A stretch of 64,000 bases of DNA from Candidatus Nomurabacteria bacterium (GTDB lineage: Bacteria > Patescibacteriota > Minisyncoccia > Phycocordibacterales > UBA9973). The stretch is from positions 106,908 through 170,907 of the forward strand of contig JACQGC010000004.1 of assembly GCA_016199805.1 (NCBI GenBank). Reading direction: 5' to 3'. Within the stretch, counting starts at the first letter, position 1; the number at the start of each line of letters is the position of its first letter. Positions 1 to 18,758 of this stretch are shown piece by piece. The translations under genes were made by a program, and so were the position numbers. The notes beneath the pieces are model-generated. The model saw nothing but the letters and a program-made list of their open reading frames with translations, was not told the origin of the DNA and searched no databases.

Positions 1-1196
1 CAGATTTGGTCACTGAAGGATGCCTCACCCTGATACCAAGAGTCTGGGTATGTACCCGCGTCCACTGATTTTGGCACAGCACAATATACAGTGTTGCTCA
101 AACTACCCCAGACACATTTCTCCGACAGTGTCCGTACTCCAATCGGGGTCGAGACTTTCGTGTCAGTATGGTAAATATTCAGGGATAAATTATCGTTACT
201 ATAAAGAATCAGTTTTCCATTTGGGCTGGCCAGCGTGGTGAGCCCGTTTATGCCGCTAAGTATATTGGTTAGACTCTTTGTGCTGGTATTCAAGGAATAT
301 ACATATCCGGGTATGCCGGATGCGGGTTTGGTTGTGAGATTAATTGTGCCGGGGTTTGGCCACTGTGATAACCATTCAGTAAAAGGTGAAATAAAAATCT
401 GTACTTTTTTACTGGTTGCCAGGTTCATCGTTGTACCTACCATATTGCCTACATTGTTGAATAAATAAAAAATACTTGAAGTGTCGGGCGATAAACTCAT
501 ATCTTTAATATTTTCCGGCAAGAAAGCCCCCTTGATTTCATTGTTTGACACTCGGTCGACACCCAGGAGTTCTTTGGGTAAGGTCGCGGCAAAAGTTTCT
601 ATTGTCCTCCCATCACTTTTCAAGTAACGCATGACTACAGATTGCCCCTTATTGCCAAAAACCGCCTCATAAATCTGAGGTATCACGGTTATGGAAAACT
701 TCTGCTCAAAAATTTTGTCCGCAAAAGTTTCATAAATATTTCCACTGGCTCTGTCCACATACCTCAAAATAGGAGCAAACTCTGTCAAAGGTTTTGTTGC
801 TTTCGGTGGAGTTTTTGATATTACTACTGGAGTTGTAGTGGCTCCATCCCCTGACAAGGGGAGGGTCGGGGTGGGGTTGGTTGCTGGTATTTCTTTTATC
901 CTTTCTTGACTAAACACTGCAAATCCCGCAACCGGCATAGTTGAAACCTTGATTAGTTTTGCGGTCGTTTCCGGAGTAGTACCTGGCTCATTATTGGGTA
1001 TTTCGACAGGAGGTATAGTAGTCGGTGGAGTTTTTGTTTTACTGCTTGCAAAAGGATTAAATTGCGAGAAAAAATTTGTACCCGTACTTTCCCCGCCTGG
1101 AGTGGTTGGGCCAGAATTAAAAACCAGAAAGCCAAAAATCGCGATAACGACGATGGCCAGAACTATTACTAAAAGTATAAAATTTCTTCGTGACAT
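1..1196 (-). CDS. Membrane-anchored hypothetical protein, 3' end beyond window edge. N-terminal TM helix then Thr/Pro-rich linker and large extracytoplasmic domain; first gene of the T4SS-like array
   Basis: Hand translation of the minus strand from ATG at 1196-1194 (MSRRNFILLVIVLAIVVIAIFGF...) runs without a stop to position 1. It is absent from the ORF track because it is truncated by the window edge. The plus-strand ORFs 20-241 and 235-468 are antisense artefacts. Confidence 0.5.
   Translation of the reverse strand, partial: MSRRNFILLVIVLAIVVIAIFGFLVFNSGPTTPGGESTGTNFFSQFNPFASSKTKTPPTTIPPVEIPNNEPGTTPETTAKLIKVSTMPVAGFAVFSQERIKEIPATNPTPTLPLSGDGATTTPVVISKTPPKATKPLTEFAPILRYVDRASGNIYETFADKIFEQKFSITVIPQIYEAVFGNKGQSVVMRYLKSDGRTIETFAATLPKELLGVDRVSNNEIKGAFLPENIKDMSLSPDTSSIFYLFNNVGNMVGTTMNLATSKKVQIFISPFTEWLSQWPNPGTINLTTKPASGIPGYVYSLNTSTKSLTNILSGINGLTTLASPNGKLILYSNDNLSLNIYHTDTKVSTPIGVRTLSEKCVWGSLSNTVYCAVPKSVDAGTYPDSWYQGEASFSDQI
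845..880. repeat. In-frame GC-rich hairpin (CCCCTGACAAGGGG, identical to the type A hairpin) within the edge ORF
   Basis: catcccctgacaaggggagggtcggggtggggttgg encodes NPTPTLPLSGDGA. Confidence 0.45.
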
Positions 1197-1212: not shown

Positions 1213-2310
1213 TTAAGGACCAACATGCCAATGATTCCCCTCGTACCTAAATGAAATGCCATCTTTTGAGTACCTTTGGTTAAGAGCCGGAGCTTTTCCA
1301 CCGGTTATGTAGTTGGTCAGGGTAGAATTTACGCCGAGATCTATGGTCGGGCTACCAATTCCGTGGCTGGTGCTTCCGGTTTCTCCACCATGCAGCCAAA
1401 ATTCTGTTCCACCTTGTATGGACAATGCACAGGTGGGGCATTTTTGATGGATGGTGTTTAAGTATGCTGGGTCAAGACCGGCCGTTGATGTGCAACTTGT
1501 TTGTCCAACAGTTGTACACTGTGCATTATATACAGTTGCGCCGCTGTCTGCTAGGTTGGCAAGTGCGCCAGCTCTGGGTGCGTAGGGTTCATTTTTGTTA
1601 TAAGCAAGACCTCCATGGGTATATTGTAATTGACCATTAACTAATGTTCCTGTTTGAGGAATATTATCATTAACTGCCACATCCACTGTCACTGGCGCCA
1701 AACTGTTGAGCTCCGTGCCCAATATGTCCGGATTTATTTGGTATAGGAGTGTCCAGGCGCCAAGGGCCAAGAGCAGACCGAATATGGCGTGAGTTATCCT
1801 TTCCTTTCCTGCTTCTTTCCCGGAAATCAGTTCCGTGGTCATGTATTCTATCCCCCCTATCACAATCATCACTACAGCCAAGACAGCGCAAAGGCCGATG
1901 AATATTCTTATCATGACGTTTAAGTATCCGCCGATTTTGTTTGGGCCGGTAGGGTCAAAAGTTGTCAGTTTGCCGTTTTCATCACATCCGCCAACGCCAG
2001 GTGTAGCACAAGGCAGTGGCGCCAGGAGCACATAAGGCCCCGCCCAAGTGCCACCTTGGCTTGCACAATCAGATTGTATTGTTGGGCCGACATTGTCGCC
2101 TATGGTGCATGTCCCAATCGGGTCGACAAATGTTCCACTGGGGTTTGATACGCTCGCGCAGTCATTTTGCGCCTGCAGTTGAGTAATTCCTGTTTTAGTT
2201 TCACTGGTAATACAATGTTCCAGATTTGTTTCCGCATAAAGAGCGGACAAGGGGCTAAGTATTCCCACCAGTGTAATGATTATTAAAATGTAGTTTATGT
2301 ATTTTCGCAT
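1213..2310 (-). CDS. Secreted/membrane protein: signal peptide, Cys-rich repeat module, VirB2/TrbC-like double-TM hairpin, C-terminal LAS/M15-type metallopeptidase-like domain (putative cell-wall hydrolase)
   Basis: 365 aa. N-terminal hydrophobic leader. Two hydrophobic helices (IFIGLCAVLAVVMIVIGG ... FGLLLALGAWTLLY). C-terminal motifs S-x-H-x-x-G-x-x-x-D (STSHGIGSPTIDLG) and E-x-x-HWH (EGNHWHVGP) resemble VanY/M15 zinc ligands. Confidence 0.45.
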   Translation of the reverse strand: MRKYINYILIIITLVGILSPLSALYAETNLEHCITSETKTGITQLQAQNDCASVSNPSGTFVDPIGTCTIGDNVGPTIQSDCASQGGTWAGPYVLLAPLPCATPGVGGCDENGKLTTFDPTGPNKIGGYLNVMIRIFIGLCAVLAVVMIVIGGIEYMTTELISGKEAGKERITHAIFGLLLALGAWTLLYQINPDILGTELNSLAPVTVDVAVNDNIPQTGTLVNGQLQYTHGGLAYNKNEPYAPRAGALANLADSGATVYNAQCTTVGQTSCTSTAGLDPAYLNTIHQKCPTCALSIQGGTEFWLHGGETGSTSHGIGSPTIDLGVNSTLTNYITGGKAPALNQRYSKDGISFRYEGNHWHVGP

Positions 2311-2350
2311 TTTACTTTATGAACTTTATAACTTTCTACTTTATAACTAC
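2311..2350. promoter_or_regulatory. AACTTTATAA-word motif block immediately upstream of minus-strand gene start
   Basis: ttactttatgaactttataactttctactttataact. Confidence 0.35.
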
Positions 2351-3337
2351 TCAAAAGTTGACATTTATTTCTTTACTTACATTTTCAAAAAGCTTATAAG
2401 TGTTGCTGATTTGCAAGTCTATCTTAGATGTTCCGGAAACTCCGGGTTGCAGTTTGAGGGGCATTAAGTTTTGTTGAAAGCTCTGAATGACGACGGGGCT
2501 GTCATTTATAGACCAACTCCAAATGAGGGTCGGTATTCGTATGTCCCCCGGCGAGATAAAGTATGGTGCGGCCTGGATAGTTTCATCACCGGTCACTTTA
2601 TGTTCGTCTGAAATGGCTTGCTCCCACAAGGTTCCGAGCTGTAAATCATTTTTATAAAATACAATCTTGGGTTGATAGGTGCCTACATCTATACTTGCCT
2701 CAGATGAAGATGTTTGGTCAACCGTACTAGCCACCACATCTATGTTGTTTGAACCGTCCAGATAATCGTTGACATAAGTGAAAGAATTTTTGCCATAACC
2801 GGAACCATCCGGCACATTGGTGTAGTCTTGTTTCCACGTATAAACGAGGTTTGTGGGGTTGGTCGTCTGAGAACCGGACTTTATTTCCGGCATGGCTACC
2901 ACTTTTATCTCACTTTGGGGTGAAGGCAAGGCCTTGCCTTTGTAAAAAGGAGGGACATAAGAGTCATCCGCCTGCCAAAGCAATATCATAACCGAAGACT
3001 TGATTAACATCGTGGTGTTGATGTCGCCATCGGGTAATTTGGTGGTGGCGATGACTGTCGTCTGTGCTCCTGCGGCTGGAGCATTCAAAGAAAAGGATTT
3101 TTTGCCGATTCCCGACAATCCACTCTTGCCGTTTACGGACCAAGATATCAAAACACTGTTTAAGTTGTCCACATAGCTATTTAAAGTGATGGTCACAGTC
3201 TCGCCGGGCGCTGGATTTTGCGGGGCGATATTTACCAAGATGGTGTCGGGAGAAGAAGCCTTTGCTTCAAAGGGTAAAACAACACTTGTTCCCATAAGTG
3301 TGATAACCAAATACAACAATAAGAATCTCAGTTTCAT
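2351..3337 (-). CDS. Secreted hypothetical protein (signal peptide, beta-rich)
   Basis: 328 aa ORF; N-terminal MKLRFLLLYLVITLMGTSVVLPFEAKA signal-like leader; preceded by the AACTTTATAA-type motif. Confidence 0.55.
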   Translation of the reverse strand: MKLRFLLLYLVITLMGTSVVLPFEAKASSPDTILVNIAPQNPAPGETVTITLNSYVDNLNSVLISWSVNGKSGLSGIGKKSFSLNAPAAGAQTTVIATTKLPDGDINTTMLIKSSVMILLWQADDSYVPPFYKGKALPSPQSEIKVVAMPEIKSGSQTTNPTNLVYTWKQDYTNVPDGSGYGKNSFTYVNDYLDGSNNIDVVASTVDQTSSSEASIDVGTYQPKIVFYKNDLQLGTLWEQAISDEHKVTGDETIQAAPYFISPGDIRIPTLIWSWSINDSPVVIQSFQQNLMPLKLQPGVSGTSKIDLQISNTYKLFENVSKEINVNF

Positions 3338-3392
3338 GCTATATAATTATATCACAACTACTTTATAAACTTTAAAACTTTCAACTTTATAA
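3338..3392. promoter_or_regulatory. AACTTTATAA-word motif block
   Basis: actactttataaactttaaaactttcaactttataacta. Confidence 0.35.
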
Positions 3393-5249
3393 CTATTGCT
3401 TATTTTCCACCTGACGAGATTCCAGTTCTTGTTTGGCTTTTTTGTTTGAGAGTATCTGCGAAGGATCGGAGGTAATAATCTGATCTTCGGTATAGGAAGA
3501 AATAATTTTTATGGCCACATGTTTTGTGCCGGCAAAGAATATTCCCTCACCCACATTGGATTCCAAAAGCAAATACTTTTCTTCATCCGTCAGGTTGAAA
3601 GTCTTTTGCAAAAGGTCAATCGTGGTAGGAGATTGTTTCAAAAGAAGCTGGATGGAAGAGTTGGTAATAATCGGCACGCCATAAGGGGAATTCAAAAAGT
3701 CGGCAGCGTCTTGAGTAATGGTGGAAAGTCCCAGGTAATATTTTCGTCCTCTTTTGGCGATGGAATACAAGAATGAGGCGGTATCTTCGGATTTCATCAT
3801 CCACCAGGCTTCGTCCACTACCAAAAGGCGTTTTTTCAAATTCTTACGCACCGCGTTCCAAATGTAATGCATGATGATATACATGGCCACCGGTTTGAGT
3901 TCGTCTTCCATGTCGCGCACCGAGAACACCACGAATTTTTTATTAATATCCACGTTTGAAGGTCTGTTTAAAAACGTGGCCCAAGAACCCTTGGTATATT
4001 TTACCAGTCTTTGCACCACGGAATCACTGCCGTCCATCCCCGAGAGCACCATTTCAAAATCCGATAAAAGTGGAGGTTCGATATTTGCAAAATCGGATTC
4101 CGGAGTTATGTCTTTTATGGCGTAAGTTTCCGAAATGGCGCGGTCCACCATGGAATCTTCTTCCGGAGTCAGCCCCCCGAGCATCAGTCGGAAAAGCCCG
4201 ACTAGGTTTATGATATTTGAACGCAACACGTCTTCAGCGGTTTCATCTTCACGGGGCATCGGCAAATCAAAAGGATTGATATGGTGGTCGGAAGAAAGTG
4301 AAATATTGAAATATCTGCCACCGACGGCTTCGGCCAAAAATTCATACTCTCTTTCCGGGTCGATGACGATGACATCGGTGTCAAACATCAAGGAACGTAA
4401 TATTTCCAGTTTGGTAGCATAAGATTTACCGGAACCGGCCTTGGCGAAAGTCACCGAATTATAATTTTCCAGAGAAAATCTGTCGAAAATAACCAAGCTG
4501 GAATTGCTTCTGTTTACCCCATAGAGAATTCCTTTGTCGGAAGTGAGGTCGGAAGAAATGAACGGGAAGACACTGGACAGAGGCTCGGAATTTAATTTTT
4601 GGTGGATGTTTAGCAGGTCTGTCTCTATCGGAATAACGCTTTTGAAACCTTCTTCTTGCTGGAAAAGGGCTGGTTTGATATATATCAGCTTTGATTCCAA
4701 CATCGATTTTATTTCATTTTCAATTTTGAAAAGCTCGAGTTCATTGTCCGCATAAATGGTGACATATATACCCACATCAAACATCTTTTCCTGCGCTTGA
4801 ATCAGGTTGTCGCGCAAGCCTTCCAGGTCTTGGTAAGCGGTGTCGAGCATCGGGTCGCGCACCATGCCTTTACCTTCACGCACGGAAATCTGGCTCTGCA
4901 CTTCGGCGACTTTTTTCTGAAATTGTCGGAGCATCAGCGAAGTGTCAATCGGATGAACAAAAATTGAAATATCAAAAACCTTGTCCAGGTTGATAATCGG
5001 GGAAAACCAATTGTCGGTTAAAAATCTCGGATAAGATATTATAAAAAATGTGCGGGCAATTTTCTCGCCCAGATTTATGGACTTGGGTTCTATCTTCAGA
5101 GCCGATGGCGCGATGACATCTTCGAGCTCCAGGTTGGCGGACTCGTAAATATCTTCGGGTAAAATAGCCAAAGTAGAAGCCCGGGCCTGGCCCCCGGCCG
5201 ACGTTCCTTGTTTTCTAAATAAATTTTTTATGTTATCTAAAATACTCAT
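3393..5249 (-). CDS. VirB4/TrbE/TraC-family type IV secretion ATPase
   Basis: 618 aa; Walker A FAKAGSGKSYAT, Walker B LLVVDEAWWM; size and motif spacing typical of VirB4-like ATPases. Confidence 0.8.
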   Translation of the reverse strand: MSILDNIKNLFRKQGTSAGGQARASTLAILPEDIYESANLELEDVIAPSALKIEPKSINLGEKIARTFFIISYPRFLTDNWFSPIINLDKVFDISIFVHPIDTSLMLRQFQKKVAEVQSQISVREGKGMVRDPMLDTAYQDLEGLRDNLIQAQEKMFDVGIYVTIYADNELELFKIENEIKSMLESKLIYIKPALFQQEEGFKSVIPIETDLLNIHQKLNSEPLSSVFPFISSDLTSDKGILYGVNRSNSSLVIFDRFSLENYNSVTFAKAGSGKSYATKLEILRSLMFDTDVIVIDPEREYEFLAEAVGGRYFNISLSSDHHINPFDLPMPREDETAEDVLRSNIINLVGLFRLMLGGLTPEEDSMVDRAISETYAIKDITPESDFANIEPPLLSDFEMVLSGMDGSDSVVQRLVKYTKGSWATFLNRPSNVDINKKFVVFSVRDMEDELKPVAMYIIMHYIWNAVRKNLKKRLLVVDEAWWMMKSEDTASFLYSIAKRGRKYYLGLSTITQDAADFLNSPYGVPIITNSSIQLLLKQSPTTIDLLQKTFNLTDEEKYLLLESNVGEGIFFAGTKHVAIKIISSYTEDQIITSDPSQILSNKKAKQELESRQVENKQ

Positions 5250-5299
5250 TTTTGTTTTTACTTTCTACTTTATAAACTTTATAACTTTTTACTTGAAGA
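5250..5299. promoter_or_regulatory. AACTTTATAA-word motif block
   Basis: tactttctactttataaactttataactttttactt. Confidence 0.35.
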
Positions 5300-5953
5300 T
5301 TAAGCTTCCAGCTTAATTTTCCCTTCCAATTCCCCCGGATTGAAAACTTTATAAAATACCTCGACGACTTCTTCGGTGCCGAGTTGGGCGGAATTTATAC
5401 CGCAGCGGCCGAGGCCCTGCTGAATGACGGCGACTCTCTCTTCCAGTTGCGACCTCTTTTCTTCAAAATCCACTTCCTTGGCCACCCGGTTTTCTTCTTT
5501 ACTGCCACCCTTAAAGAATTTTCCGAATATCCCGCCAAATATTCCCGAATCTGATTTTAGAACAGTATGGGTATATGGCACAACCACAAAAAAACTTTTG
5601 GTCATAATGGCTACCGACTCGGTGAAATTTCTGATAAATTCTATATACTCTTTTGTCTGTAGTTTGAGTAAGGGTTCGGTCTGCACTTTTACTCTGTTTT
5701 CCAACAATAACAAATATGGTCTTATGTCCAACTTCCTGGACTGGATAGATACCTGCACCGAAAAATCGAGAGTGTTTAGGAAATTTTGAAATTGTAAAAT
5801 TGTCGCCTTTTGTTCATCGTCTGACTTTAGGGAAAGGTTCACCGAGTTGGCCAAGACGAGCGCCCGCAAGTCGCCGTCTTTTAGAACCACGATGCCGTCG
5901 CGTACTTCTTTGATGGGTATAAACTCTTGTGTTGCTTTTGCGTTTAAGGCCAT
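5300..5953 (-). CDS. Hypothetical protein within T4SS-like cluster
   Basis: 217 aa ORF, co-directional, preceded by AACTTTATAA motif. Confidence 0.5.
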   Translation of the reverse strand: MALNAKATQEFIPIKEVRDGIVVLKDGDLRALVLANSVNLSLKSDDEQKATILQFQNFLNTLDFSVQVSIQSRKLDIRPYLLLLENRVKVQTEPLLKLQTKEYIEFIRNFTESVAIMTKSFFVVVPYTHTVLKSDSGIFGGIFGKFFKGGSKEENRVAKEVDFEEKRSQLEERVAVIQQGLGRCGINSAQLGTEEVVEVFYKVFNPGELEGKIKLEA

Positions 5954-6053
5954 AGATGTCTAGTTAAAAGTTCATAAAGTTCTTAAAGTTATAAAGTTGG
6001 ATTAAAATTAATTTGCATTGTATTTACTTGACGGACTTTATAAACTTTCTACA
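5954..6053. promoter_or_regulatory. AACTTTATAA-word motif block (both orientations, 100 bp)
   Basis: aaagttcataaagttcttaaagttataaagtt ... ggactttataaactttctacattataact. Confidence 0.35.
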
Positions 6054-6482
6054 TTATAACTGATGTTCTTGATTTTTTCTTAAATCAAGAACATCGAGAC
6101 TCCAGGCCAAGTCCCGGAGCTTGCTCCCAGTCAACTTGTTCCCGTATACCGCCTGATCTTTGTTGTCAGTTGTGGCTTGTGGTTGGTTGTTCGCAGACGA
6201 GCTCTTTTTCTTTTTCCAAATATAAAGCTTATTTTGACTGAAATATTTGAACCCGGATTCCAGCATGTTGATAAACGGCTTATTGTTGGGACGGTAAAAT
6301 ATTAGCATACCGGAAAATCCGGCAATCAGTAAAATGGGGATAGCTGCAAAAAGTAGACCGAGCAATTTAAATAGTATGTAGCACAAACCCGCCCCTCCGG
6401 CCAAATAGGCAAATTCCCTAAAGGTGAAAGGGCCAAAAATTTTGTCTTCAATATCCAAAAATTGTGGAACTTTAAATTGCAT
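6054..6482 (-). CDS. Small two-TM membrane protein, PrgI/VirB3-like
   Basis: 142 aa; two adjacent hydrophobic helices (YLAGGAGLCYILFKLLGLLFAAIPILLIAGFSGMLIF) near the N-terminus; sits next to the VirB4-like gene as VirB3/PrgI usually does. Confidence 0.45.
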   Translation of the reverse strand: MQFKVPQFLDIEDKIFGPFTFREFAYLAGGAGLCYILFKLLGLLFAAIPILLIAGFSGMLIFYRPNNKPFINMLESGFKYFSQNKLYIWKKKKSSSANNQPQATTDNKDQAVYGNKLTGSKLRDLAWSLDVLDLRKNQEHQL

Positions 6483-6535
6483 GGGGATGAGTTATAAAGT
6501 TATAAAGTTCATAAAGTTGTAAAGTTAATGCAATA
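6483..6535. promoter_or_regulatory. AACTTTATAA-word motif block
   Basis: gagttataaagttataaagttcataaagttgtaaagtta. Confidence 0.35.
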
Positions 6536-6883
6536 CTAATCCAGAGTTTTAATAAGACCTGATAATAGCTTAGAAATTTCTAGAGTTAAATCATACATTT
6601 TCTTAAAATCTCGTTCTGTAATGTATTTTAACTCCAAACCTAAGTTTAACATAGATCTGACTTCTCCGGCAGACCCCTTGGATATAAATAGAAAGTTTTT
6701 AAGCTCTTTGTTTGTTCGCCTTTCAAAACCTTCAGCAATGTTGTTCATTATTGAAACTGAAGCTCTTTCTATTTGGTTTTTAAAACTATAGTCTTTACAG
6801 CTCTTAAATACTATATAAACATTAATCGTTAAATCTTTTCCTTTTTGCCAAGATATTATTTCCTCAAATTTTTCTATTCGCAT
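6536..6883 (-). CDS. Four-helix-bundle protein (TIGR02436-like; former 23S rRNA intervening-sequence protein family)
   Basis: 115 aa; NIAEGFERRTNKELKNFLFISKGSAGEVRSML motif is characteristic of this family. Confidence 0.7.
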   Translation of the reverse strand: MRIEKFEEIISWQKGKDLTINVYIVFKSCKDYSFKNQIERASVSIMNNIAEGFERRTNKELKNFLFISKGSAGEVRSMLNLGLELKYITERDFKKMYDLTLEISKLLSGLIKTLD

Positions 6884-6930
6884 TTTACTTGATGACTTTA
6901 TGAACTTTTTACTTTATAACTGGACCACTC
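6884..6930. promoter_or_regulatory. AACTTTATAA-word motif block
   Basis: tgactttatgaactttttactttataact. Confidence 0.35.
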
Positions 6931-7935
6931 CTACTCCGGCACCTCTCGGTAAGGATCAACCAAAGGTTTACTTGATGGAGGTGTGGGTGCTGTAATGTTT
7001 GGCAAGGAGTGGTCGGTTTTTACTACCGGCGATGGCACGGGAATAGACATTTTTTGGGCCAAGGCGGGATGAATTGTATTATTACCCTCTTGAGGGGTGG
7101 CTTTAGCCGGGGTGGATAGTTCCAATTTTTCCGGGACGGGCATAGGATTATTCCCCTCTTGAGGGGTGGTGCTTGCGCCGGGGTGGATAGACTTCTTCTC
7201 CGGAATAATTTCAATCCCATGTGTTTTCAGTACGTTTGCGTTACTTACTTTCTGCTCCTCGGTGTCATGTTTTTCTTCGGGTTCCCCCATCTTGGTTCTG
7301 ACTTCTTTTATAATTCTTTGATTAACGGAATTTACGATTGTGTAGGCTATCCCGTCCGGCACTTTCAAAATGCTCTTTATCGCATCCTCGAATTTATCGG
7401 TAGGAACAGTGCCCAAAATCACACTAGTGGTTGTCGTTTCCAGCAGCCCTATTTGTTCCACCGTAAGCCCGTTTTCACTCCCGATGTTATAGATGGTCTC
7501 ATAATAATGCGCTTCTTTGATGTAATTTTTTATTTCTTCCGGTAGTTTCGCGAAACGCTCATCGAGCTCTTCTTCGAAACTTGCCCCTGCATTTCCTTCG
7601 GACCTTATGTTTGCGTCAAACACATTTAGAAGCTCCGGACGGATAGTTTTTATTATCGACTCATTTATTTCGGCGAGAATATTATCCAAAAATTCTTTTT
7701 GCAGACCCAAATCCAATTCCAGATTTTTCTTATATTCATCCAAATGAATTATGCCGAGCAAAACCAGAGTCATTTCCGTGCCCAAGGTTTCTTGTTGAGC
7801 CTTGGTCAGGTCGTGTTTGGTGCTGATTTGCTGCAATGTCTCCAGCCATTTCATACTGGAAAATATTTCCTGCAATTTGGGTGTAAGTTTTGAGTAATAT
7901 AAAGCAACATTTTGTTGTAATTCTGTTTTATCCAT
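6931..7935 (-). CDS. Hypothetical protein with C-terminal Pro-rich tail containing a tandem ATPQEGNN repeat encoded by a palindromic DNA repeat
   Basis: 334 aa; two copies of the CCCCTCTTGAGGGGTGG...GGGGTGGATA element lie in-frame at 7084-7190. Confidence 0.55.
   Translation of the reverse strand: MDKTELQQNVALYYSKLTPKLQEIFSSMKWLETLQQISTKHDLTKAQQETLGTEMTLVLLGIIHLDEYKKNLELDLGLQKEFLDNILAEINESIIKTIRPELLNVFDANIRSEGNAGASFEEELDERFAKLPEEIKNYIKEAHYYETIYNIGSENGLTVEQIGLLETTTTSVILGTVPTDKFEDAIKSILKVPDGIAYTIVNSVNQRIIKEVRTKMGEPEEKHDTEEQKVSNANVLKTHGIEIIPEKKSIHPGASTTPQEGNNPMPVPEKLELSTPAKATPQEGNNTIHPALAQKMSIPVPSPVVKTDHSLPNITAPTPPSSKPLVDPYREVPE
7084..7119. repeat. Type D palindromic repeat CCCTCTTGAGGGGTGG...GGGGTGGATA (copy 1, in-frame in the 6931-7935 gene)
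   Basis: accctcttgaggggtggctttagccggggtggata. Confidence 0.55.
7153..7190. repeat. Type D palindromic repeat copy 2 (in-frame)
   Basis: cccctcttgaggggtggtgcttgcgccggggtggatag. Confidence 0.55.
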
Positions 7936-7963: not shown

Positions 7964-10519
7964 TTAATGATGGTCTGGAGCATGCGCGCTAGCCGTCGGG
8001 CCGTGCGCTGCTCCATGTCCTCCACCCCCATCTCCCAATTTCACATCTATCTTCGCGTGTTTTAGCGAATCACTGATTGTCTGACCAAGGTCCTTGAATA
8101 TATTTCCTTGAGGAGAGCCAGCTTCAACTCCGGCTCCTTTCTTTAGTCCGGCCCTCATTCCAAGCGCTACCGCAGAAATGATGCCAATAGTTGCTTTTGC
8201 GCCCAATCCCTCTCTCTTGTCTGCCGTTAACCCAGGTATATTTCTTACATCGTAAGTTCCACTTGTTGTTCTGGACGCTATTCTTGTTCCCATTCCCACT
8301 TTTTGCTGTGCTTCTTCTTGAAGTTTTGTAAACCTTTCTTTCCCTATTGATTGGGTTAGATTTTTCAATACTTCATTAAATTCTTTATTTAATTTATCTT
8401 CAACCTGCTTTCTTCCTTGATCATTCAACTCGCCCGCTGCGTCAATACTGTTAGGATCTGTTCTCTTTGTTTCATTTATAACATCTTGACGTCTTTTTAC
8501 TTTGTAATCATTCTCACCTTTTGCGTTTATGATATTGCCATTTACGTCTTTCTCGATAAGAACATCTCTGTTTTTGGCATCATAACCTCTCTTGATGTCT
8601 GATTCTACCTCTGACCTCTTTTCTTTCACGAATGTCTTTTCTATCTTTTCTTGTTCTACTCCAGAGAGGAATTTATCTCCTACTCCTTCGAGTCCTGCTT
8701 TTTTCTTTACTTCATCTATTTCATGTCTTGCGTGGTCTATTTCTCCTGACCTAGATTGAGCAGCGTTAATTCTTCCTCCTATTGCATCTACTCCACTGAT
8801 TTTTACTCCAGGATTTTTAGCTTCATAAGCCTTTTTTGACCCCTCCCACGTAGGCTTGGCCCCGGTCTTTCCTCCACTCTCCCATTTATCTAGTTCCCTG
8901 TTGTGCTCAATCATCGCCTTTCCGTAATGTTTTGCTCCTTCTGTTCTTGAAGTCGCCGCGGCTCCTCGGGCGATTAGTGTTCTTCCAGCAAAAGCTGCAC
9001 CCAAAGCAGTTCCGCCAACAGCTAGACCACCCAATACTTTTGCGCCAGCAATCAAATCCTCGGTGTATTTTCCGGACCCCTCCTTGGCAAGTTTTGTCGC
9101 CTTAAGAAGAAGACTGATGATTACCGCGGCTGGAAGCAAGACGAGAATGATAGTTTCTATCGATCCCACATCGGCTCGGTTGGAAGTGACTGCGAGGTCG
9201 TTAAAAATATTTGACCTTATCAACATAAATATCAAATACAACATAAACATAAAAGCCGGAGCCATAAACGCGGCTCCGAGCAGGCGCTTCAGCCAGGCTT
9301 CCCATCCCCAACGGTCAATACCGCTTAGCTTGGGCAAACTTGAAGACATAAAAGCAAAAGGCGCGGCAATAATCAAAACCCAGAGTTCTACCAGACGTCC
9401 GAGGAAACTCATGCCTGACATAAAGAGCGCATAGGCGGCGAAGAGCATTATTAATCCCGATATAAAAATAATTCCTAAAATCATTGGAGTTGGGATTTCT
9501 TCCGGGGACGGGTACCAATAACCATAAATTGCCCTGGGTATAAAATATATTGGCGCAGCGACAATATTGGCGGCGCTTATCAATGTCGAGCTGGTTGTCG
9601 CCGGCACTACCTGTGTTTTATTTTTAAGCTTGTCAAAAAAACCTTGGGTTAAAAATTGGGATGGGTCAAAAGCGGAGACCATACCGCCAGAAATATCTTT
9701 CTGGTCATATTTTGTAGCGGGGACATATGGTCTAGGGGTTATTGTCCCGTCCGGATTTTTTGTGTCCACATTTAATTTATTGTAAAAAACCAAAGCCAGA
9801 GCATTGGAAGTATCAATAATTACTTCGGTGAAAAACATACTAAAATTTATCAGCAAGGCCATGATTATGACCTGCACGATTATTTTTTTGGAATCATGCC
9901 CTAAATCCAAAATAATTTGGATGGCGACATAAAGTAAAATCAAAATAAAGAAAATATTTGAAAGGTCCCGCACGATGCCCCAAGCGGCGGGGATAAAAGT
10001 AGACCCGGCAAACAAGGTACTGCTCAAGGTCATAGATATCAAAACATTGAATAGTTTTGCCGCGACGATAAGCAACAAAGATGGAACGCCATAAAAAACA
10101 AAGAAAGCTATTTTTTGTATACAACCTTCAATGCTACCAGTTCCAATAACGTCACATTTTTTAAGGTTGTCTACTAAAGCATTGGTCGATGTTGGTGTTG
10201 TAGTTGCGGTTCCATTTACATTGGTTGTGGTTGTGGTGCCATTCGCGTTAGTGGTGGGTGGGTTAGGGGTAACATTTCCATTTGCTGGGTTGCAAGTTTG
10301 ATCTATCACAGACTGAGGCTGTTTTCCTGATAGTCGTGCTCGACATTCTGCTTCTGTTTCAGCCCGCGCTTTTCCAGCCGAAACAAAAGTTCCGGCTAAA
10401 ACCATAAGGAACAAGAATCCCAGTACTAAAATTTTACTTTTAGTTTTTGGTTTTAATTTATTTTTATCCTTTGTCGTCATCATTATTGATTTAACTTTAC
10501 AAACTTTAAAACTTTTCAC
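7964..10519 (-). CDS. Polytopic membrane protein, TrbL/VirB6-like, with Thr-rich N-terminal region and charged C-terminal tail
   Basis: 851 aa; signal/TM at the N-terminus, Thr-rich low-complexity segment, at least 6 hydrophobic helices in the middle, long Lys/Glu-rich C-terminal domain. This architecture is typical of VirB6/TrbL homologues. Confidence 0.5.
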   Translation of the reverse strand: MKSFKVCKVKSIMMTTKDKNKLKPKTKSKILVLGFLFLMVLAGTFVSAGKARAETEAECRARLSGKQPQSVIDQTCNPANGNVTPNPPTTNANGTTTTTNVNGTATTTPTSTNALVDNLKKCDVIGTGSIEGCIQKIAFFVFYGVPSLLLIVAAKLFNVLISMTLSSTLFAGSTFIPAAWGIVRDLSNIFFILILLYVAIQIILDLGHDSKKIIVQVIIMALLINFSMFFTEVIIDTSNALALVFYNKLNVDTKNPDGTITPRPYVPATKYDQKDISGGMVSAFDPSQFLTQGFFDKLKNKTQVVPATTSSTLISAANIVAAPIYFIPRAIYGYWYPSPEEIPTPMILGIIFISGLIMLFAAYALFMSGMSFLGRLVELWVLIIAAPFAFMSSSLPKLSGIDRWGWEAWLKRLLGAAFMAPAFMFMLYLIFMLIRSNIFNDLAVTSNRADVGSIETIILVLLPAAVIISLLLKATKLAKEGSGKYTEDLIAGAKVLGGLAVGGTALGAAFAGRTLIARGAAATSRTEGAKHYGKAMIEHNRELDKWESGGKTGAKPTWEGSKKAYEAKNPGVKISGVDAIGGRINAAQSRSGEIDHARHEIDEVKKKAGLEGVGDKFLSGVEQEKIEKTFVKEKRSEVESDIKRGYDAKNRDVLIEKDVNGNIINAKGENDYKVKRRQDVINETKRTDPNSIDAAGELNDQGRKQVEDKLNKEFNEVLKNLTQSIGKERFTKLQEEAQQKVGMGTRIASRTTSGTYDVRNIPGLTADKREGLGAKATIGIISAVALGMRAGLKKGAGVEAGSPQGNIFKDLGQTISDSLKHAKIDVKLGDGGGGHGAAHGPTASAHAPDHH

Positions 10520-10535
10520 TTTATAACTAACCCCC
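10498..10535. promoter_or_regulatory. AACTTTATAA-word motif block
   Basis: ttaactttacaaactttaaaacttttcactttataact. Confidence 0.35.
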
Positions 10536-10675: not shown

Positions 10676-11068
10676 TCAGTCAAACAAGAGCGCCTTCAGG
10701 GCGCTCTTTAGTTGAGAGAATAATTTCTCATCAATCATTCCGATTTTTCTAGTTAATCTCCTAATATCGATAAGTCTTATTTGGGAAAGAATAGCACTGG
10801 CATCACGATTTTCTAATTTACCTAAGTAAAAATAATGTTTCCCTTTTTTTATTTTACCGGTCAATGCGATCGCTAAGAAAATTTCTCGATTGAAACCCTT
10901 AATGACAATTATCGGTCGGTCAAAATTCTTACCCGTGCCGTCTTGTTCATTTCCGACATTTACGCCCAAAGAGCACCACCAAACTTCTCTTTCATGGTAG
11001 AAGACATTTGGTTTTTGTTTATGGATTGTTTTTTTATCGCTATTCCATTTGTCAAAATCTTTTTGCAT
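10676..11068 (-). CDS. PemK/MazF-family endoribonuclease-like toxin (no adjacent antitoxin found)
   Basis: G-x-EQ-x-G-x(4)-RP-x-I-V then SQIRLIDIRRLTRKIGMIDEKLF matches the MazF/PemK pattern. The track ORF (to 11137) starts upstream inside the palindromic repeat; the internal Met at 11068 is the more likely start. Confidence 0.5.
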   Translation of the reverse strand: MQKDFDKWNSDKKTIHKQKPNVFYHEREVWWCSLGVNVGNEQDGTGKNFDRPIIVIKGFNREIFLAIALTGKIKKGKHYFYLGKLENRDASAILSQIRLIDIRRLTRKIGMIDEKLFSQLKSALKALLFD

Positions 11069-11084
11069 TGATTTTTTGTATTTA

Positions 11085-11129
11085 TTCCCCTCTTGAGGGG
11101 TGGCTTTTGTAACCAAAAGGCGGGGTGGA
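11085..11129. repeat. Type D palindromic repeat copy 3 (at the 5' end of the MazF-like ORF)
   Basis: cccctcttgaggggtggcttttgtaaccaaaaggcggggtggatg. Confidence 0.55.
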
Positions 11130-11144
11130 TGTATCAACTTTATT

Positions 11145-13058
11145 TTAATTTTGTACCCAGGTTATGTTGTTGCGTATGTTGGGCCCGCAGCTGGCTTCTG
11201 TGATATTGGTTGTTGTCGTGCCGTCGGGATAAGTGCAAGTGCCATATGGAGCCCATGTTCCTGCACCCACAGGAGTATTTGCGCAGTTGGCTTGGGTTGT
11301 ATTTTGAAGTGGGGTGCCATTGACGATGCAAGCACCGAGCGGGCCGGTAGTGGTGGTCACTGTCGGACTCCAGTTTCCGCCCAAGGTTGTGCATTCTGAT
11401 TGTTTGGTATTGTTTACTGGGCTGCCGCTTATGGTGCAAGTTCCAATCAGGTCAGTTACTCCAGTAACCGGCGGGGCCACAGTTGTAGCTGTTGGAGTTA
11501 TTGTAATTGGAAGAATTATAACTTTGGCCGGAAGAGAAGAATCTTGAATAGTTACTAGGGCATTTCCTGCAGCTACGCCAATGACAGTTATGGTGGAGCC
11601 CTGAGCATACACGGTTGCAAATTGCGGGTCTGTGGGGTTCCATGTTCCTGCTCCGCTGGTAGTTGCCGAACAAGCAGCTTGAGTAATATTTTGTGTTGTT
11701 CCAGCTCCGCCATTGTCACAATTTCCCAAAAGAATGTAGGGAGGAGTGCCGCCAGAAATGGTTATGTTGTTGACGGCATTGCCGGGAAAAACAGAGACAC
11801 TGGTTGGGCTGACAGACAAAGGACCGCCAGTGATTGTTGTATTTGTGCCAGCGCTGCCTCCGGTGGTATTTGTAACCAAGGTGTTTCCTTGATAACTCCA
11901 AGAGTCTGTGGAGGAACTGCTTCCATTTATGGCATTACCTAGGGCGTTCAAACCTTGATCTAAAAAGTGACTAACCAGAGTATTTAGAATGGCGCTCAAG
12001 CTGCCTTCCACCATGGAGCCTAGAGCGGTCTGGTCTATATTTGAACCCAAAGCCTTGAATACCTGGTTGGCTGCCACCGCGCCAGGGGTTGTGTTTACTA
12101 ATCCATTTGAACCATCAGCTTTTTTACATTCATTCTTTTTACTCCAGTCAGATTTTTCTGTTGCGAGGTCTCTCTGGTAATTTGCATTTACTTGAGCAAT
12201 ACAATCACTTACCACTCCAGGTGCACTTTTAGAACCAACTGGACCATAACAGGCGTCTATTCTAGCTGTGAGATTTGAATCCAGATTAGATTGAAAAGCT
12301 GGCCTGTTGAATTCATTGTATCCATTATTGTAATTTGGGTTTACGTCATTTGGGCAAATTTGCGGAGACAAGAAGCCCATACCCTGATTTAAGGTGGTGT
12401 TTATTTTTTGCGCGGCGTTTTGGGTTGTACCTTGGAGTTGGCGGGCGAGTTTATCTGTGGCGAGCATATCAAAACCCAAATAATTATTTTGCGGATATTG
12501 TGTGTTGACAAGGAATCCATTCCATCCGCCGGCGTTGAAATTGTTTCTGTAGTTTTGCGCCATTATCGGGCTCATCACTGCCGAGAGCGAATAGGCCGCA
12601 TTTGAATCGGCCGCTGCTTTGTATCTGTTTATTACGTTTAGGGCAAAATTTTGACCATAAGGGAATCTGTTTGGGTCGTAACCGAATTCACCGACAATAG
12701 TTTTAATTTCGGATTTGGCGATGTCGTGAAAGAAAGAATCGGAATTGGTCAGAAAGAGCGGAGAGCCGTGGAAGCCACTATTGATCCAACCGGTAATGCC
12801 CTTGGTCAGTTCTTGAAGTAATCTCTTTTCAATAACCATCACTACTTGCTTGGCTATAGCGATGAGCGCATTTACCACAACATTGCCAGTCTCTATGGTT
12901 TGTGGAACCCCAACACTTAGTCCAACTACTGATATAAGAGTTGGGTCTATCACTACCCACTGCGCTTGCGCCTGCTTGGGCCCAGAAAACAAAACAGCCG
13001 GAAGTATTATCAATATGAGCAACAAAGCTGAGATTAATTTTTTATTTTTTTCTTTCAT
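11145..13058 (-). CDS. Large secreted protein with C-terminal Cys/Thr-rich repeats (possible surface or pilus-tip/adhesin component of the T4SS-like system)
   Basis: 637 aa; signal peptide; three C-terminal repeats of G-x-C-(T/I)-x(8-12)-T-x(3-5)-C-x(5)-G-x-W, shared with the N-terminus of the 1213-2310 protein. Confidence 0.6.
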   Translation of the reverse strand: MKEKNKKLISALLLILIILPAVLFSGPKQAQAQWVVIDPTLISVVGLSVGVPQTIETGNVVVNALIAIAKQVVMVIEKRLLQELTKGITGWINSGFHGSPLFLTNSDSFFHDIAKSEIKTIVGEFGYDPNRFPYGQNFALNVINRYKAAADSNAAYSLSAVMSPIMAQNYRNNFNAGGWNGFLVNTQYPQNNYLGFDMLATDKLARQLQGTTQNAAQKINTTLNQGMGFLSPQICPNDVNPNYNNGYNEFNRPAFQSNLDSNLTARIDACYGPVGSKSAPGVVSDCIAQVNANYQRDLATEKSDWSKKNECKKADGSNGLVNTTPGAVAANQVFKALGSNIDQTALGSMVEGSLSAILNTLVSHFLDQGLNALGNAINGSSSSTDSWSYQGNTLVTNTTGGSAGTNTTITGGPLSVSPTSVSVFPGNAVNNITISGGTPPYILLGNCDNGGAGTTQNITQAACSATTSGAGTWNPTDPQFATVYAQGSTITVIGVAAGNALVTIQDSSLPAKVIILPITITPTATTVAPPVTGVTDLIGTCTISGSPVNNTKQSECTTLGGNWSPTVTTTTGPLGACIVNGTPLQNTTQANCANTPVGAGTWAPYGTCTYPDGTTTTNITEASCGPNIRNNITWVQN

Positions 13059-13123: not shown

Positions 13124-14002
13124 TTAGGGTTTCAATTTTTGGTTGATAACAGCGGCTAGGTTTTTTACATCTGATACCAAAGTGGTGGCGTTTTGATTAT
13201 ATTTAGTCATCCCCCCCAAGGCGACAATCGGGTCGGTATTATAAAGCTTGAGGTCATTTAAATTTTCTACAACTCTCTCAAAATCATTTAAAACATTTAA
13301 ATGGAGAGACGCGAGAGACGAAGGAACACTAATTTTTGCCATCCCATCTATAAAACCACTAATTTGTTTAATGTTTGGGTCGAGTAGAGCAAGCGCGCTT
13401 ATGTCTGGGTTGTTTTGGTCGGCCGAGAACTTTTGCAAAATGTCTAAAATAGTATATTTTGTTGGATTTTTTTTATAAATAGTAGCTAGGGTGTCGGCAT
13501 ATTTTTTTACAGTGGCATACGAATCATCCTTTAATATTTTGAGATCGGTTAATATGTAAACTTTTCTTACCGGAGTATTTTGAATTTGCTGTGCTAGTGT
13601 GTCTCCCAAGTTGCTTGCCGTAATCTCGTCCATTCCCCCGTTTTGGCTCAAGGTGGTGACAGTCGCCATCAGGTCTTGAGAGAATTTATCTGTTTGGGTC
13701 AGATTTTCCGGTCCTTTGGTCAAAGGCAGCCCTTGTTCGGTTTGATTTTGCGCCACTAATTTTTGGATAGTTACACTATCCGGTGTTCCCGGGGTGGTTT
13801 CTTTCTTTGTCGGGTCGAGCCCGTACAAGCTCTCTTCCCAGTCCGGTACTCCGTCCCCGTCGGTATCTTTATTTACCGCGTCTTGCAGAGTCATGGTGCT
13901 GTCGTAAGTAAGACCTTCTTTTTTAAACAGAGAATCAATCGGATTTTTAAACACAAATCCTATTTTTATCAAAAAAAGCACAACAAGAAACACTATCGCC
14001 AA
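13124..14002 (-). CDS. Membrane-anchored hypothetical protein with Ca-binding-like DTDGDGVPD motif
   Basis: 292 aa; N-terminal TM; thrombospondin-type-3-like Asp-rich loop. Confidence 0.5.
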   Translation of the reverse strand: MAIVFLVVLFLIKIGFVFKNPIDSLFKKEGLTYDSTMTLQDAVNKDTDGDGVPDWEESLYGLDPTKKETTPGTPDSVTIQKLVAQNQTEQGLPLTKGPENLTQTDKFSQDLMATVTTLSQNGGMDEITASNLGDTLAQQIQNTPVRKVYILTDLKILKDDSYATVKKYADTLATIYKKNPTKYTILDILQKFSADQNNPDISALALLDPNIKQISGFIDGMAKISVPSSLASLHLNVLNDFERVVENLNDLKLYNTDPIVALGGMTKYNQNATTLVSDVKNLAAVINQKLKP

Positions 14003-14090
14003 AGCGATTGATATTATCCTTTTGTGTTTTTGCCAGATATTTTTAATAATGGGTTAATTATAACAACAATATAAATGTAAAGCAAAAAAC

Positions 14091-14168
14091 AACCCCCTAA
14101 ATCCCCCTTATCAGGGGGACTCCTGAATTTTTCCTCCCCTGACAAGGGGAGGCTAGGAGGGGTTGTAT
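14091..14168. repeat. Type A GC-rich double-hairpin element (CCCCCTTATCAGGGGGA + CCTCCCCTGACAAGGGGAGG), overlapping the ksgA 3' end
   Basis: aaccccctaaatcccccttatcagggggactcctgaatttttcctcccctgacaaggggaggctaggaggggttg. Confidence 0.55.
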
Positions 14169-15013
14169 TCTTCTGCAAGCTTGAGCCAGTCTTCCAGGGT
14201 CAAATCTTCCGCTCTTTTGTCCTTCATTTCTTCTGGTAAGACAAATTTTTCGTTTTTTAGGGCTTTTAGATTGCCGGAAAGCTTTTTTCTCTTGTGCGCA
14301 AATCCGGTTTTTACTATTTCCCAGAATCTTTGTTCGAAACCCTCCCCTCCTTTCGGAGGAGGGGTGCCGAAGGCGGGGTGGTGGTTTAGTGAGGGGAGAA
14401 AATTCTTCCTCGAAATATTTTTTATCAAAATCACCGCCGAGTCCACTTTCGGGGCTGGAGAAAAATATCTGGCCGGTACCTTCATTATCATTTTTGGCTC
14501 GCCATAAGCTTTGACAGAAATGGAAAGTAAACTTTCTTTTCCTCCCCTCCTTTCACCCGAGGGGCCGGGGGTGGTGATTCTCTTTGCCACTTCATTTTGG
14601 ACCATGAGCACCATACGCTCCGGCTGGCGCTCGGAAGTCAAAAACTTTTTCAAAATTGCGCCGGTGATGTTGTAAGGAATATTGGCGATTATTTTGTATT
14701 TCTCTCCCCCTGCTAAGGGGGAGATTAAGAGGGGGTCAAAATCCAAAATATCTTCATTCAGTAATTTTAATTGCCCGGATAAAATTTCTTTTTCAAATTT
14801 GGTTTTTAAAAACCCGAAAAGTTCGTAATCTTTTTCTACAGCTATAAGCTGACAGCTACTAGCTAGAAGCTTTCTGGTGAGTGCGCCTTTGCCGGGGCCA
14901 ATTTCCAAAACTGTGTCGCCCGGTTTCAAATCTCCTGCTTCTACGATTTTTCGTAATGCCGGTTCAGATTTCAAAAAGTTTTGCCCGAGAGATTTTTTTG
15001 CTTTGTGTATCAC
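14153..15013 (-). CDS. rsmA: 16S rRNA (adenine1518/1519-N6)-dimethyltransferase RsmA/KsgA, carrying three in-frame GC-rich palindromic insertions
   Basis: SLGQNFL motif, Rossmann-fold SAM-binding region. Insert-encoded peptides are TPPPKGGEG, PGPSGERRGGK and LAGGEKY. Confidence 0.85.
   Translation of the reverse strand: MIHKAKKSLGQNFLKSEPALRKIVEAGDLKPGDTVLEIGPGKGALTRKLLASSCQLIAVEKDYELFGFLKTKFEKEILSGQLKLLNEDILDFDPLLISPLAGGEKYKIIANIPYNITGAILKKFLTSERQPERMVLMVQNEVAKRITTPGPSGERRGGKESLLSISVKAYGEPKMIMKVPARYFSPAPKVDSAVILIKNISRKNFLPSLNHHPAFGTPPPKGGEGFEQRFWEIVKTGFAHKRKKLSGNLKALKNEKFVLPEEMKDKRAEDLTLEDWLKLAEEYNPS
14338..14398. repeat. In-frame GC-rich palindromic insert within ksgA (1 of 3; others at 14541-14576 and 14701-14736)
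   Basis: ccctcccctcctttcggaggaggggtgccgaaggcggggtggtg within otherwise AT-rich coding sequence. Confidence 0.5.
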
Positions 15014-18661: not shown

Positions 18662-18676
18662 AATGTAATACTAACA

Positions 18677-18754: not shown

Positions 18755-18758
18755 TTTT

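Follow-up and report, generated by a model that had tools for sequence, protein, structure and literature searches.

Candidatus Nomurabacteria contig JACQGC010000004.1 was analysed over a stretch of 64,000 nucleotides, called the window in the following. It contains, at positions 1213-2310 of the minus strand, an open reading frame (ORF) with an ATG start and a length of 365 amino acids (aa). The encoded protein is identical to NCBI protein HY311_00940 from a Candidatus Nomurabacteria metagenome-assembled genome, where it is encoded on a contig of 214 kb. It consists of five parts, namely a signal peptide, copies of a Cys-loop module, a VirB2/TrbC-type hairpin, a conserved linker and a C-terminal domain, referred to here as the HWH domain. 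The gene is the second-to-last of a minus-strand type IV secretion system (T4SS) cluster, in which VirB4, PrgI, TrsD-like and VirB6-like genes share this strand over no more than 9 kb; several secreted proteins are also encoded there. On the other flank a conserved 453-aa gene is followed by jag(R3H)-yidC-rnpA and by dnaA-dnaN, which places the T4SS cluster at the replication origin. An origin-proximal T4SS has been described for Patescibacteria by Quinonero-Coronel et al. (PMC12102498). Taken together, our results make it likely that the protein is a pilin-anchored, extracytoplasmic peptidoglycan peptidase of the LAS type that serves the T4SS as its wall-processing, VirB1-like module.

Assignment of the hairpin to the pilins rests on several models. 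For this sequence the match to Pfam T4SS_pilin (PF18895) is marginal, with 27.1 bits at a cutoff of 26.6 for aa 136-190. The same model matches 111 of 112 close and 82 of 91 distant relatives (best E 1e-12), TrbC (PF04956) matches 95 of 112 family members at E <= 10, and the NCBIfam Mbov_0395 pilin-like model gives 23 bits on the 365-aa protein. Hydropathy and charge counts show hydrophobic helices at about aa 128-153 and 173-191 with a K/R-containing loop between them; in the full-length model the helices cover aa 125-158 and 162-192. The module starts with a conserved YxLLAPLP lead-in and closes with INPD(I/L)L. Stand-alone pilins are encoded in related genomes; they measure 140-200 aa, share 60-70% identity with the hairpin and stop 3-4 residues past INPxLL. 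When the pilin part by itself was used to search for homologues, only such short stand-alone pilins and no further fusions came up. A sequence-only reading of the stretch had claimed both a signal peptide and a VirB2/TrbC-like double transmembrane (TM) hairpin. The former is borne out by the hydropathy peak, the modelled helix and the conserved alanine listed in Table 1, the latter is confirmed by the Pfam match and by the context of VirB4, PrgI(VirB3), TrsD and VirB6-like genes.

The Cys-loop module comprises about 25-30 aa of the form (L/I)G-x-C-x(11-16)-Q/E-x2-C-x(3-8)-G-x-W. The strict pattern G-x-C-x(9,20)-C-x(3,9)-[GN]-x-W was searched for in the six frames of the window, which contain 135 stop-to-stop segments with a length of 100 aa or more. 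It occurs once in the 365-aa protein (aa 66-89) and three times in the 637-aa secreted protein of the same cluster (from aa 447, 541 and 577), and nowhere else. In each of the two proteins one degenerate copy also aligns, with both Cys columns kept. In the pilin family, 31 matches were found in 24 of 289 proteins compared to about 1.3 in residue-shuffled controls, corresponding to a roughly 24-fold excess, and 28 of these 31 sit N-terminal to the hairpin. The repeat common to both proteins, as proposed in the sequence-only reading, is thus supported by pattern scan, shuffle controls and the alignment suggested there, in which both Cys columns are conserved in all six copies. Some details had to be corrected. 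The 637-aa protein carries four copies instead of three, and the spacing from Cys to G-x-W is 4 and not 5. The two copies assigned to the 365-aa protein both align, but only one fits the pattern as given.

The module matches no known family. Six tandem copies of two alternating sequence types are present in a 497-aa pilin-LAS relative (P0018), so the module behaves as an expandable repeat. Since other members of the pilin family carry fn3, TIG, Big_1 or CBM domains at the same N-terminal position, this region looks like a variable, surface-exposed binding region.

The C-terminal HWH domain

Behind the linker DLxSLxxVTVxV the C-terminal domain proper spans aa ~215-365. Scanning the 365-aa protein gave no Pfam or NCBIfam match for it. 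With a profile built from the domain only, 1264 cluster representatives (50% identity) are retrieved at E <= 1e-3, of which 433 reach E <= 1e-10. In the large homologue searches of this study, features were judged on the best 120-150 matches of each; in the 150 best matches of this one the domain stands nearly always C-terminal behind the pilin hairpin.

Conservation was judged on three alignments, of which A2 holds 38 sequences and A1 and A3 are larger. C265, C273, S275, W305, H307, H316 and D324 are invariant in all three. For L279, C291, E357, H360 and H362, invariance holds in one alignment or more, with conservation of at least 90% in the others; E357, H360 and H362 show it in A2. W361 is invariant in A2 and reaches at least 90% in A1, and C294, G301, T302 and E303 are likewise conserved to at least 90%. 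W305, H307, H316 and D324 stay invariant over more than 200 diverse members. The putative metal ligands as well as E357 and H360 keep at least 90% conservation in more than 200 sequences, down to ~27% identity. C265/C273 and C291/C294 are probable disulfides. The C-terminal motif given in the sequence-only reading needs a small change in its first half, where the spelling S-x-H...G-x-x-x-D is off by one and the protein reads G-S-T-S-H316-G-I-G-S-P-T-I-D324 (H-x7-D). The second half, E357-G-N-H360-W-H362, stands as it was described.

With the family alignment, AlphaFold2 models the HWH domain with high confidence (pLDDT 94.1, pTM 0.86). The model fits the LAS fold, in which helices cover one face of a central antiparallel beta-sheet, and is similar to solved LAS enzymes. 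Helix 282-290 is followed by strand 297-300 (ITGG), a loop that contains H316, strand 323-326 carrying D324, helix 329-336, a hairpin that terminates at E357 and strand 360-363 (HWH). This order agrees with that of the LAS core. Hedgehog signalling domains give the best structural matches, and nine further LAS enzymes are among the top 60: MepA (4.1), VanX (3.7), LdcB (3.7), S. albus DD-peptidase 1lbu (3.5), VanYB (3.4), VanXYg (3.2), VanXYc (3.1), Ply500 (2.6) and LysB4 (2.5).

Residue by residue, the domain was compared with the Sonic hedgehog (Shh) domain ShhN, whose sequence was confirmed against PDB chains by a full-length match of 399.5 bits. The hhalign alignment of the HWH profile with this single sequence is not significant alone (E = 0.18). 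Unconstrained, it pairs T302-E303-x-W305 with TEGW of Shh, H316 with H141, D324 with D148, E357 with E177, H360 with H181 and H362 with H183. The zinc of Shh is bound by H141, D148 and H183, with E177 serving as catalytic base (PMC6027127). Against a Hedgehog (Hh)/DD-peptidase profile of 60 sequences, made from 59 bacterial loci of GTDB genomes and ShhN, the same alignment was obtained over 67-69 columns with P = 0.009-0.015 and an hhalign probability below 5%. One of 150 column-shuffled Hh alignments reached the real score. In the same set-up bona fide LAS pairs gave P = 0.0076 (Hh-VanY), 0.071 (Hh-M15_4) and 0.001 (VanY-M15_4), compared to 0.087, 0.53 and 0.58 for non-LAS controls. Lying in the range of the bona fide pairs, the signal is as strong as that between accepted LAS families; taken alone, this profile similarity falls short of proof. 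Among the LAS arrangements, the Hedgehog/M15A type (strand-Glu-turn-His-x-His) comes closer to the domain than VanY, which had been named in the sequence-only reading.

A canonical Hedgehog/DD-peptidase domain is encoded in a CPR genome, Candidatus Vogelbacteria MHTK01000002.1 (L060, match 501-722). It is 35% identical to ShhN residues 76-148 and has H-x6-D and H-x-H intact. Canonical and divergent LAS types therefore both occur in Paceibacteria-related lineages.

Domain replacement at the syntenic slot

A search seeded with an SLT_2-bearing relative (P0048) revealed pilins of the same clade fused to varied peptidoglycan-active domains. Among the matches listed, SLT_2 occurs in about 25 clusters (27-35 bits), VanY in about 12 (48.5 bits), NlpC/P60 in about 11 (45 bits), YkuD in 8 (50 bits), Peptidase_M15_4 in 5 (65.8 bits) and Amidase_5 in a single one (26.6 bits). 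Representatives of each fused type were verified by hmmscan above the curated cutoffs. The recognisable fusions are present in public databases with automatically assigned names, among them 'M15 family metallopeptidase', 'VirB2 component (pilin)' and 'D-alanyl-D-alanine carboxypeptidase family protein'. The fusion of a pilin-like element to a wall enzyme, expected to be unusual in the sequence-only reading, is present as an architecture but is no one-off; in this clade it is common and modular.

Six Paceibacteria loci, close relatives of one another, were compared, that of the window and one each with VanY, SLT_2, Peptidase_M15_4, NlpC/P60 and YkuD (L001, L061-L065). All six share one order: VirB4 - 328/331-aa gene - pilin-X - 448/464-aa gene - jag/yidC/(yidD)/rnpA/(rpmH), dnaA. 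VirB4 is 89-99% identical among them, whereas the flanking 328-aa and ~450-aa proteins are 56-65% identical, with one close pair at 88-93%. This difference indicates that the extracytoplasmic partners of the T4SS evolve far faster than the ATPase. The exchange is seen in the VanY and NlpC/P60 loci. There, VirB4 is 99%, the upstream gene 93%, the downstream gene 89% and the pilin part 74% identical, and the C-terminal domains are nevertheless of unrelated folds. The sequence break between sibling fusions falls directly past the conserved linker. Occupying the same slot in six syntenic loci, the HWH domain takes the position held elsewhere by five recognised wall enzymes, of which two are canonical LAS peptidases. 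This synteny is the strongest line of evidence for reading the domain as a wall enzyme.

After removal of the linker, hhalign of the HWH domain against the five sibling groups gave VanY as the best (P = 0.04-0.06), in an alignment that brings ITGG, His, Asp and Glu-x-x-His into register. For the three non-LAS groups P was 0.18-0.69. A first hhalign signal against the sibling fusions (P = 2e-6) was discarded, as it came from the shared 15-aa linker. Assembly chimeras were rejected as an explanation of the fusions because the same synteny recurs on independent contigs (NCBI, JGI, ENA, Logan).

Neighbouring genes and repeats

The features of the protein, the genes of the T4SS cluster and the repeats of the window are collected in Table 1.

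Table 1. Positions in the window of the parts of the 365-aa protein, of the genes around it and of the repeats.
Feature	Position	Strand	Basis or remark
453-aa conserved downstream gene, 5' part	1..1196	-	N-terminal TM helix; after pilin-X in all six loci compared
Second catalytic block (proposed), aa 357-362: E357-G-N-H360-W-H362	1225..1242	-	conservation and hhalign pairing with Shh
First catalytic block (proposed), aa 301-324: G-T302-E303-F-W305-L-H307-...-S-H316-x7-D324	1339..1410	-	conservation and hhalign pairing with Shh
Conserved linker (DLxSLxxVTVxV) and C-terminal HWH domain, aa 201-365	1216..1710	-	putative LAS-type zinc peptidase
VirB2/TrbC-type T4SS pilin module, aa 91-200	1711..2040	-	Pfam PF18895; NCBIfam; modelled helices
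Cys-loop module, canonical copy, aa 66-89 (GTCTIGDNVGPTIQSDCASQGGTW)	2044..2115	-	pattern match; modelled beta-hairpin and short helix, pLDDT 81-91
Cys-loop module, degenerate copy, aa 31-61 (C33...C51)	2128..2220	-	aligns with the other five copies; model pLDDT <50
Signal peptide, aa 1-26 (MRKYINYILIIITLVGILSPLSALYA)	2233..2310	-	hydropathy peak aa 12-19; modelled helix aa 2-23; A26 conserved to at least 90%
~45-nt tandem array of (A)GTTATAAAGT-like units	2304..2348	-	directly 5' of the pilin-fusion start codon; repeat search, upstream sequences compared
328-aa conserved protein	2351-3337	-	
VirB4, CD1110 type	3393-5249	-	368.7 bits
TrsD / VirB4-N-like	5300-5953	-	
PrgI/VirB3	6054-6482	-	
23S_rRNA_IVP four-helix protein	6536-6883	-	107.9 bits
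334-aa protein	6931-7935	-	
851-aa VirB6-like protein	7964-10519	-	polytopic
MazF/PemK toxin-like ORF	10676-11137	-	42 bits
637-aa secreted protein	11145-13058	-	
637-aa secreted protein, C-terminal part, aa 445-637	11148..11726	-	four Cys-loop copies, aa 445-473, 539-563, 575-602, 606-634
292-aa protein	13124-14002	-	
GC-rich palindromic repeats	847-874, 7073-7100, 7142-7169, 11076-11103, 14086-14177, 18673-18764, 31843-31881, 32710-32748, 34177-34215, 56702-56842, 60914-60939		

Profile scans detected no other peptidoglycan enzyme inside the T4SS cluster. About 6-8 kb beyond it, a secreted LysM-LysM-Peptidase_M23 protein, a wall peptidase of the LAS type (103 bits), is encoded at 20204-21388 (+), and a ZIP zinc transporter lies near this gene at 21476-22210 (-). 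A class A penicillin-binding protein gene adjoins dnaN, from which we conclude that the organism makes peptidoglycan. Past 14 kb the window holds housekeeping genes (ksgA, UbiA prenyltransferase, UvrD helicase); a coupling protein or a relaxase was not seen in the scanned part of this region.

Within the cluster, two genes are unexpected. The 23S_rRNA_IVP gene is kept at the same place in two of the other loci (L061 and L062), and the MazF/PemK-like ORF has no obvious antitoxin partner. In the 637-aa protein, aa 476-535 between the first two Cys-loop copies resemble an Ig-like beta domain (ATVYAQGSTITVIGVAAGNALVTIQDSS...), and the N terminus gives a weak DUF4141 match of 22.9 bits, below the cutoff of 30.

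The ~45-nt element upstream of the pilin fusion recurs in the cluster. It is built from three to four tandem units of ~9-11 nt ((A)GTTATAAAGT / GTTCATAAAGT) and is found in sense orientation at 2304-2348, 3350-3394, 5257-5301, 6877-6921 and 10484-10528, immediately ahead of the start codon in the pilin-LAS, 328-aa, VirB4, 23S_rRNA_IVP and VirB6-like genes. Inverted copies precede the TrsD-like and PrgI genes (5968-6061 and 6496-6529), and another copy lies at 33822-33886. The element is absent before the 637-, 334-, 292- and 453-aa genes. The T4SS genes may have in it a common operator, promoter or translation signal. GC-rich palindromic repeat families of the GGGGAGG...CCCCTC type are located mostly in or near intergenic stretches. 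CCCCTCTTGAGGGGTGG has three copies inside ORFs, two in the 334-aa protein and one at the start of the MazF-like ORF, where it encodes TPQEGNN/K.

Proposed role and comparison with known systems

For the 365-aa protein we propose Sec export and cleavage of the signal peptide, after which the VirB2-like hairpin would be embedded in the membrane, or form part of a pilus-like polymer, and keep its short basic loop on the inner side. The two parts that flank it, the Cys-loop modules at the N terminus and the 165-aa domain at the C terminus, would then lie outside the cell. Such a location is consistent with paired cysteines, as six and four cysteines belong to the proposed outside parts and one to TM1. 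The HWH domain would act as a very divergent LAS zinc peptidase in which H316, D324 and H362 (or H360) bind Zn2+, E357 activates water, and H360 and H307 assist. It may cut peptide bonds in peptidoglycan stems or cross-links beside the secretion channel, and a VirB1-like activity would in this way be delivered as a pilin fusion instead of a separate protein. Quinonero-Coronel et al. (PMC12102498) reported pilins and VirB1 homologues of Patescibacteria separately in 2025 and describe no pilin fusions; most genomes with VirB2 had no VirB1, so that pilus biogenesis apparently needs no hydrolase. A built-in wall enzyme would account for these VirB2-bearing genomes without a recognisable VirB1.

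Several observations weigh against the assignment as a LAS-type hydrolase on a pilin. The Pfam M15 families (VanY PF02557, Peptidase_M15_4 PF13539, Peptidase_M15_3, Peptidase_M15, HH_signal and Peptidase_M74) gave no match even at E <= 10, neither for the 365-aa protein nor for 203 family members (112 close and 91 distant relatives) or two hidden Markov model consensus sequences, and hence the HWH domain belongs in no existing Pfam M15 family. phmmer and hmmsearch against PDB sequences returned chance matches only (capsid protein, BAG1, talin; E ~0.1-0.4), and a Foldseek search of the domain against the PDB gave nothing below E = 1 (best E = 1.2). The LAS motif is defined as H-x(3-6)-D together with H-x-H or E-x-x-H (PMC6027127). 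E357-x2-H360-x-H362 fits both of the latter, but H316-x7-D324 is one residue longer than the former, and the spacing of 7 lies outside the LAS canon. A 165-aa globular domain on each subunit may be sterically incompatible with a helical pilus of the VirB2 type. Furthermore, YkuD among the swapped domains is a transpeptidase fold and not a hydrolase, so the common denominator of the slot is 'peptidoglycan-active' rather than strictly 'hydrolase'. The claim of a LAS/M15-type peptidase made in the sequence-only reading therefore finds no support from profile searches in Pfam, NCBIfam and PDB sequences, and draws it instead from the profile-profile alignment onto the Shh residues, the VanY and Peptidase_M15_4 sibling pilins and the syntenic domain replacement.

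Alternatively, the hairpin may be a mere two-helix membrane anchor recruited from a pilin gene. The protein would not polymerise but would work in the manner of the TM-anchored VirB1-type hydrolases of Gram-positive T4SS (PrgK, TraG of pIP501), and pilus subunits would be encoded elsewhere, if at all. Bulky ends of ~100 aa (N-terminal) and 165 aa (C-terminal) would crowd a filament of the VirB2 type, and related genomes do have stand-alone pilins, 60-70% identical to the hairpin. However, the gene is the sole pilin-like ORF in the window and none was found among ~10 kb of gene calls beyond it in L001, and the hairpin is conserved as well as in stand-alone pilins, including the YxLLAPLP lead-in and the INPxLL end. 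We regard a pure anchor as possible, although somewhat improbable. Much less probable is a LAS/Hedgehog-like fold without enzymatic activity, in which the HWH domain would be a metal-stabilised binder of peptidoglycan or host glycan and the pilin an adhesin. The Hedgehog signalling domains as best structural matches and the non-canonical H-x7-D spacing are in line with such a binder. The putative metal ligands and the residues needed for catalysis only (E357, H360) are all conserved, though, whereas Drosophila Hh, which lost the peptidase activity, also lost these residues (PMC6027127). In addition, the HWH domain swaps with five catalytic domains and not with binding domains.

A further explanation concerns the target of the enzyme. 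The pilin might polymerise or tip the T4SS filament while a swappable enzyme attacks the peptidoglycan of the host bacterium that the epibiont lives on. The T4SS pilins of Paceibacteria would then be evolved pilins with an interchangeable warhead (the new LAS subfamily, VanY, M15_4, NlpC/P60, SLT or YkuD) and with N-terminal adhesin modules varying alongside. Analogues are the evolved VgrG/PAAR spikes of type VI secretion systems (T6SS) and the X-Tfe effectors of bacteria-killing T4SS. In evolved VgrG/PAAR spikes such as VgrG3 of Vibrio cholerae, a subunit of the secretion apparatus likewise carries a variable C-terminal wall-degrading enzyme; machine and fold are different, and T6SS effectors have cognate immunity genes. 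In favour of evolved pilins, the enzyme type turns over very fast compared to the machine (six types at 89-99% VirB4 identity; 99% between the VanY and NlpC/P60 loci), polymorphic effectors likewise combine a constant delivery module with a C-terminal enzyme that varies, and the N termini are variable and adhesin-like (Cys-loop modules, fn3, TIG, Big_1, CBM). T4SS and pilins are also essential for the epibiotic growth of a cultivated Saccharibacterium (PMC10633639; PMC12857230). If this explanation holds, the warhead is swapped by recombination right past the linker while VirB4 stays 99% identical, the filament is a device to breach the host wall, and the enzyme type tracks host wall chemistry. 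No immunity gene is evident, however. The downstream 453-aa gene was considered for this function and rejected, since the ~450-aa genes at this place are conserved with every enzyme type alike, at 56-65% and, within the close pair, at 89%. The swaps could also be neutral if any peptidoglycan cutter is able to open the own wall. We consider evolved pilins rather unlikely. A VirB1-like role agrees with the absence of co-variation between downstream gene and enzyme type, and with the possibility that any wall-cutting enzyme could serve at the own wall.

According to literature, the T4SS of Patescibacteria are the sole ones reported as essential for the growth of their owner and the sole monoderm ones with VirB2-like pilins (PMC12857230, PMC10633639). 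In the literature searched, no publication was found on a pilin-hydrolase fusion, on syntenic domain swapping or on the HWH domain. We rate as new both a very divergent LAS subfamily and the way of supplying a T4SS with its wall enzyme. For Paceibacteria, the locus suggests that the pilin itself may bring the hydrolase along, in many cases as a domain unseen by current profiles (at least 1264 clusters at 50% identity). Such a reading would give a name and a testable active site to a large 'dark' domain family, and a very divergent new branch to the Hedgehog/DD-peptidase superfamily. The six enzyme swaps at one syntenic slot offer a natural series for the question of own wall versus host wall.

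In comparison to the LAS/Hedgehog-DD-peptidases (MEROPS clan MD; M15A S. albus DD-carboxypeptidase, Hh/DD-peptidases, Shh-N, VanX, VanY/LdcB, MepA), the HWH domain shows the same order of strand (ITGG/TE-W), loop-His, strand-Asp, helix, beta-hairpin to Glu, turn and His-x-His strand. Each of the five catalytic positions of Shh is paired in the alignment with a residue that is invariant in A2, and the insert from Glu to HxH is variable in length in both. Differences are the lack of detectable sequence-profile similarity to the canon, H-x7-D in place of H-x6-D, and features seen in the HWH domain only. These are W-x-H307 as an additional invariant element, two Cys pairs specific to the family, and a subdomain of three strands on the N-terminal side (aa 220-240). 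Except for E303, it keeps no acidic residue of the Hh calcium site. Unlike other LAS/Hedgehog peptidases, it nearly always stands behind a pilin hairpin.

The sibling VanY and Peptidase_M15_4 fusions (e.g. P0330, P0356) have the same N-terminal architecture, linker and locus, and their ITGG strand, S-x-H...D block and E-x-x-H block align with the HWH domain. Without the linker, the similarity amounts only to P = 0.04-0.28. The VanY-type siblings carry an insert of ~35 aa past ITGGGYR and are without the second His of H-x-H. The domains of both sibling types are recognised by Pfam, whereas the HWH domain is not.

With the VirB2/TrbC-type pilins of Patescibacteria (PF18895; PMC12102498) the protein shares the signal peptide, the two-helix hairpin, the Pfam membership and a site near virB4, virB3/prgI and virB6 close to dnaA. 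Those pilins are ~100-200 aa long, whereas the 365-aa protein has, in addition, Cys-loop modules at its N terminus and an enzyme-like domain at its C terminus.

Similar to the VirB1-type hydrolases of monoderm T4SS (PrgK of pCF10, TraG of pIP501, CD419/TrsG), it would be a membrane-anchored extracytoplasmic peptidoglycan-active enzyme in an MPF-FATA-like cluster and the presumed opener of the wall. VirB1-type hydrolases are of the SLT, CHAP or NlpC type. Here, the putative domain is of the LAS type, the anchor is a pilin hairpin and the enzyme type is swapped among close relatives. VirB1 proteins are recognised by an SLT and/or a CHAP/NlpC-P60 domain; the 365-aa protein has neither, while positional orthologues carry SLT_2 or NlpC/P60. 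For this reason we describe it as a functional analogue of VirB1 and not as a member of the family.

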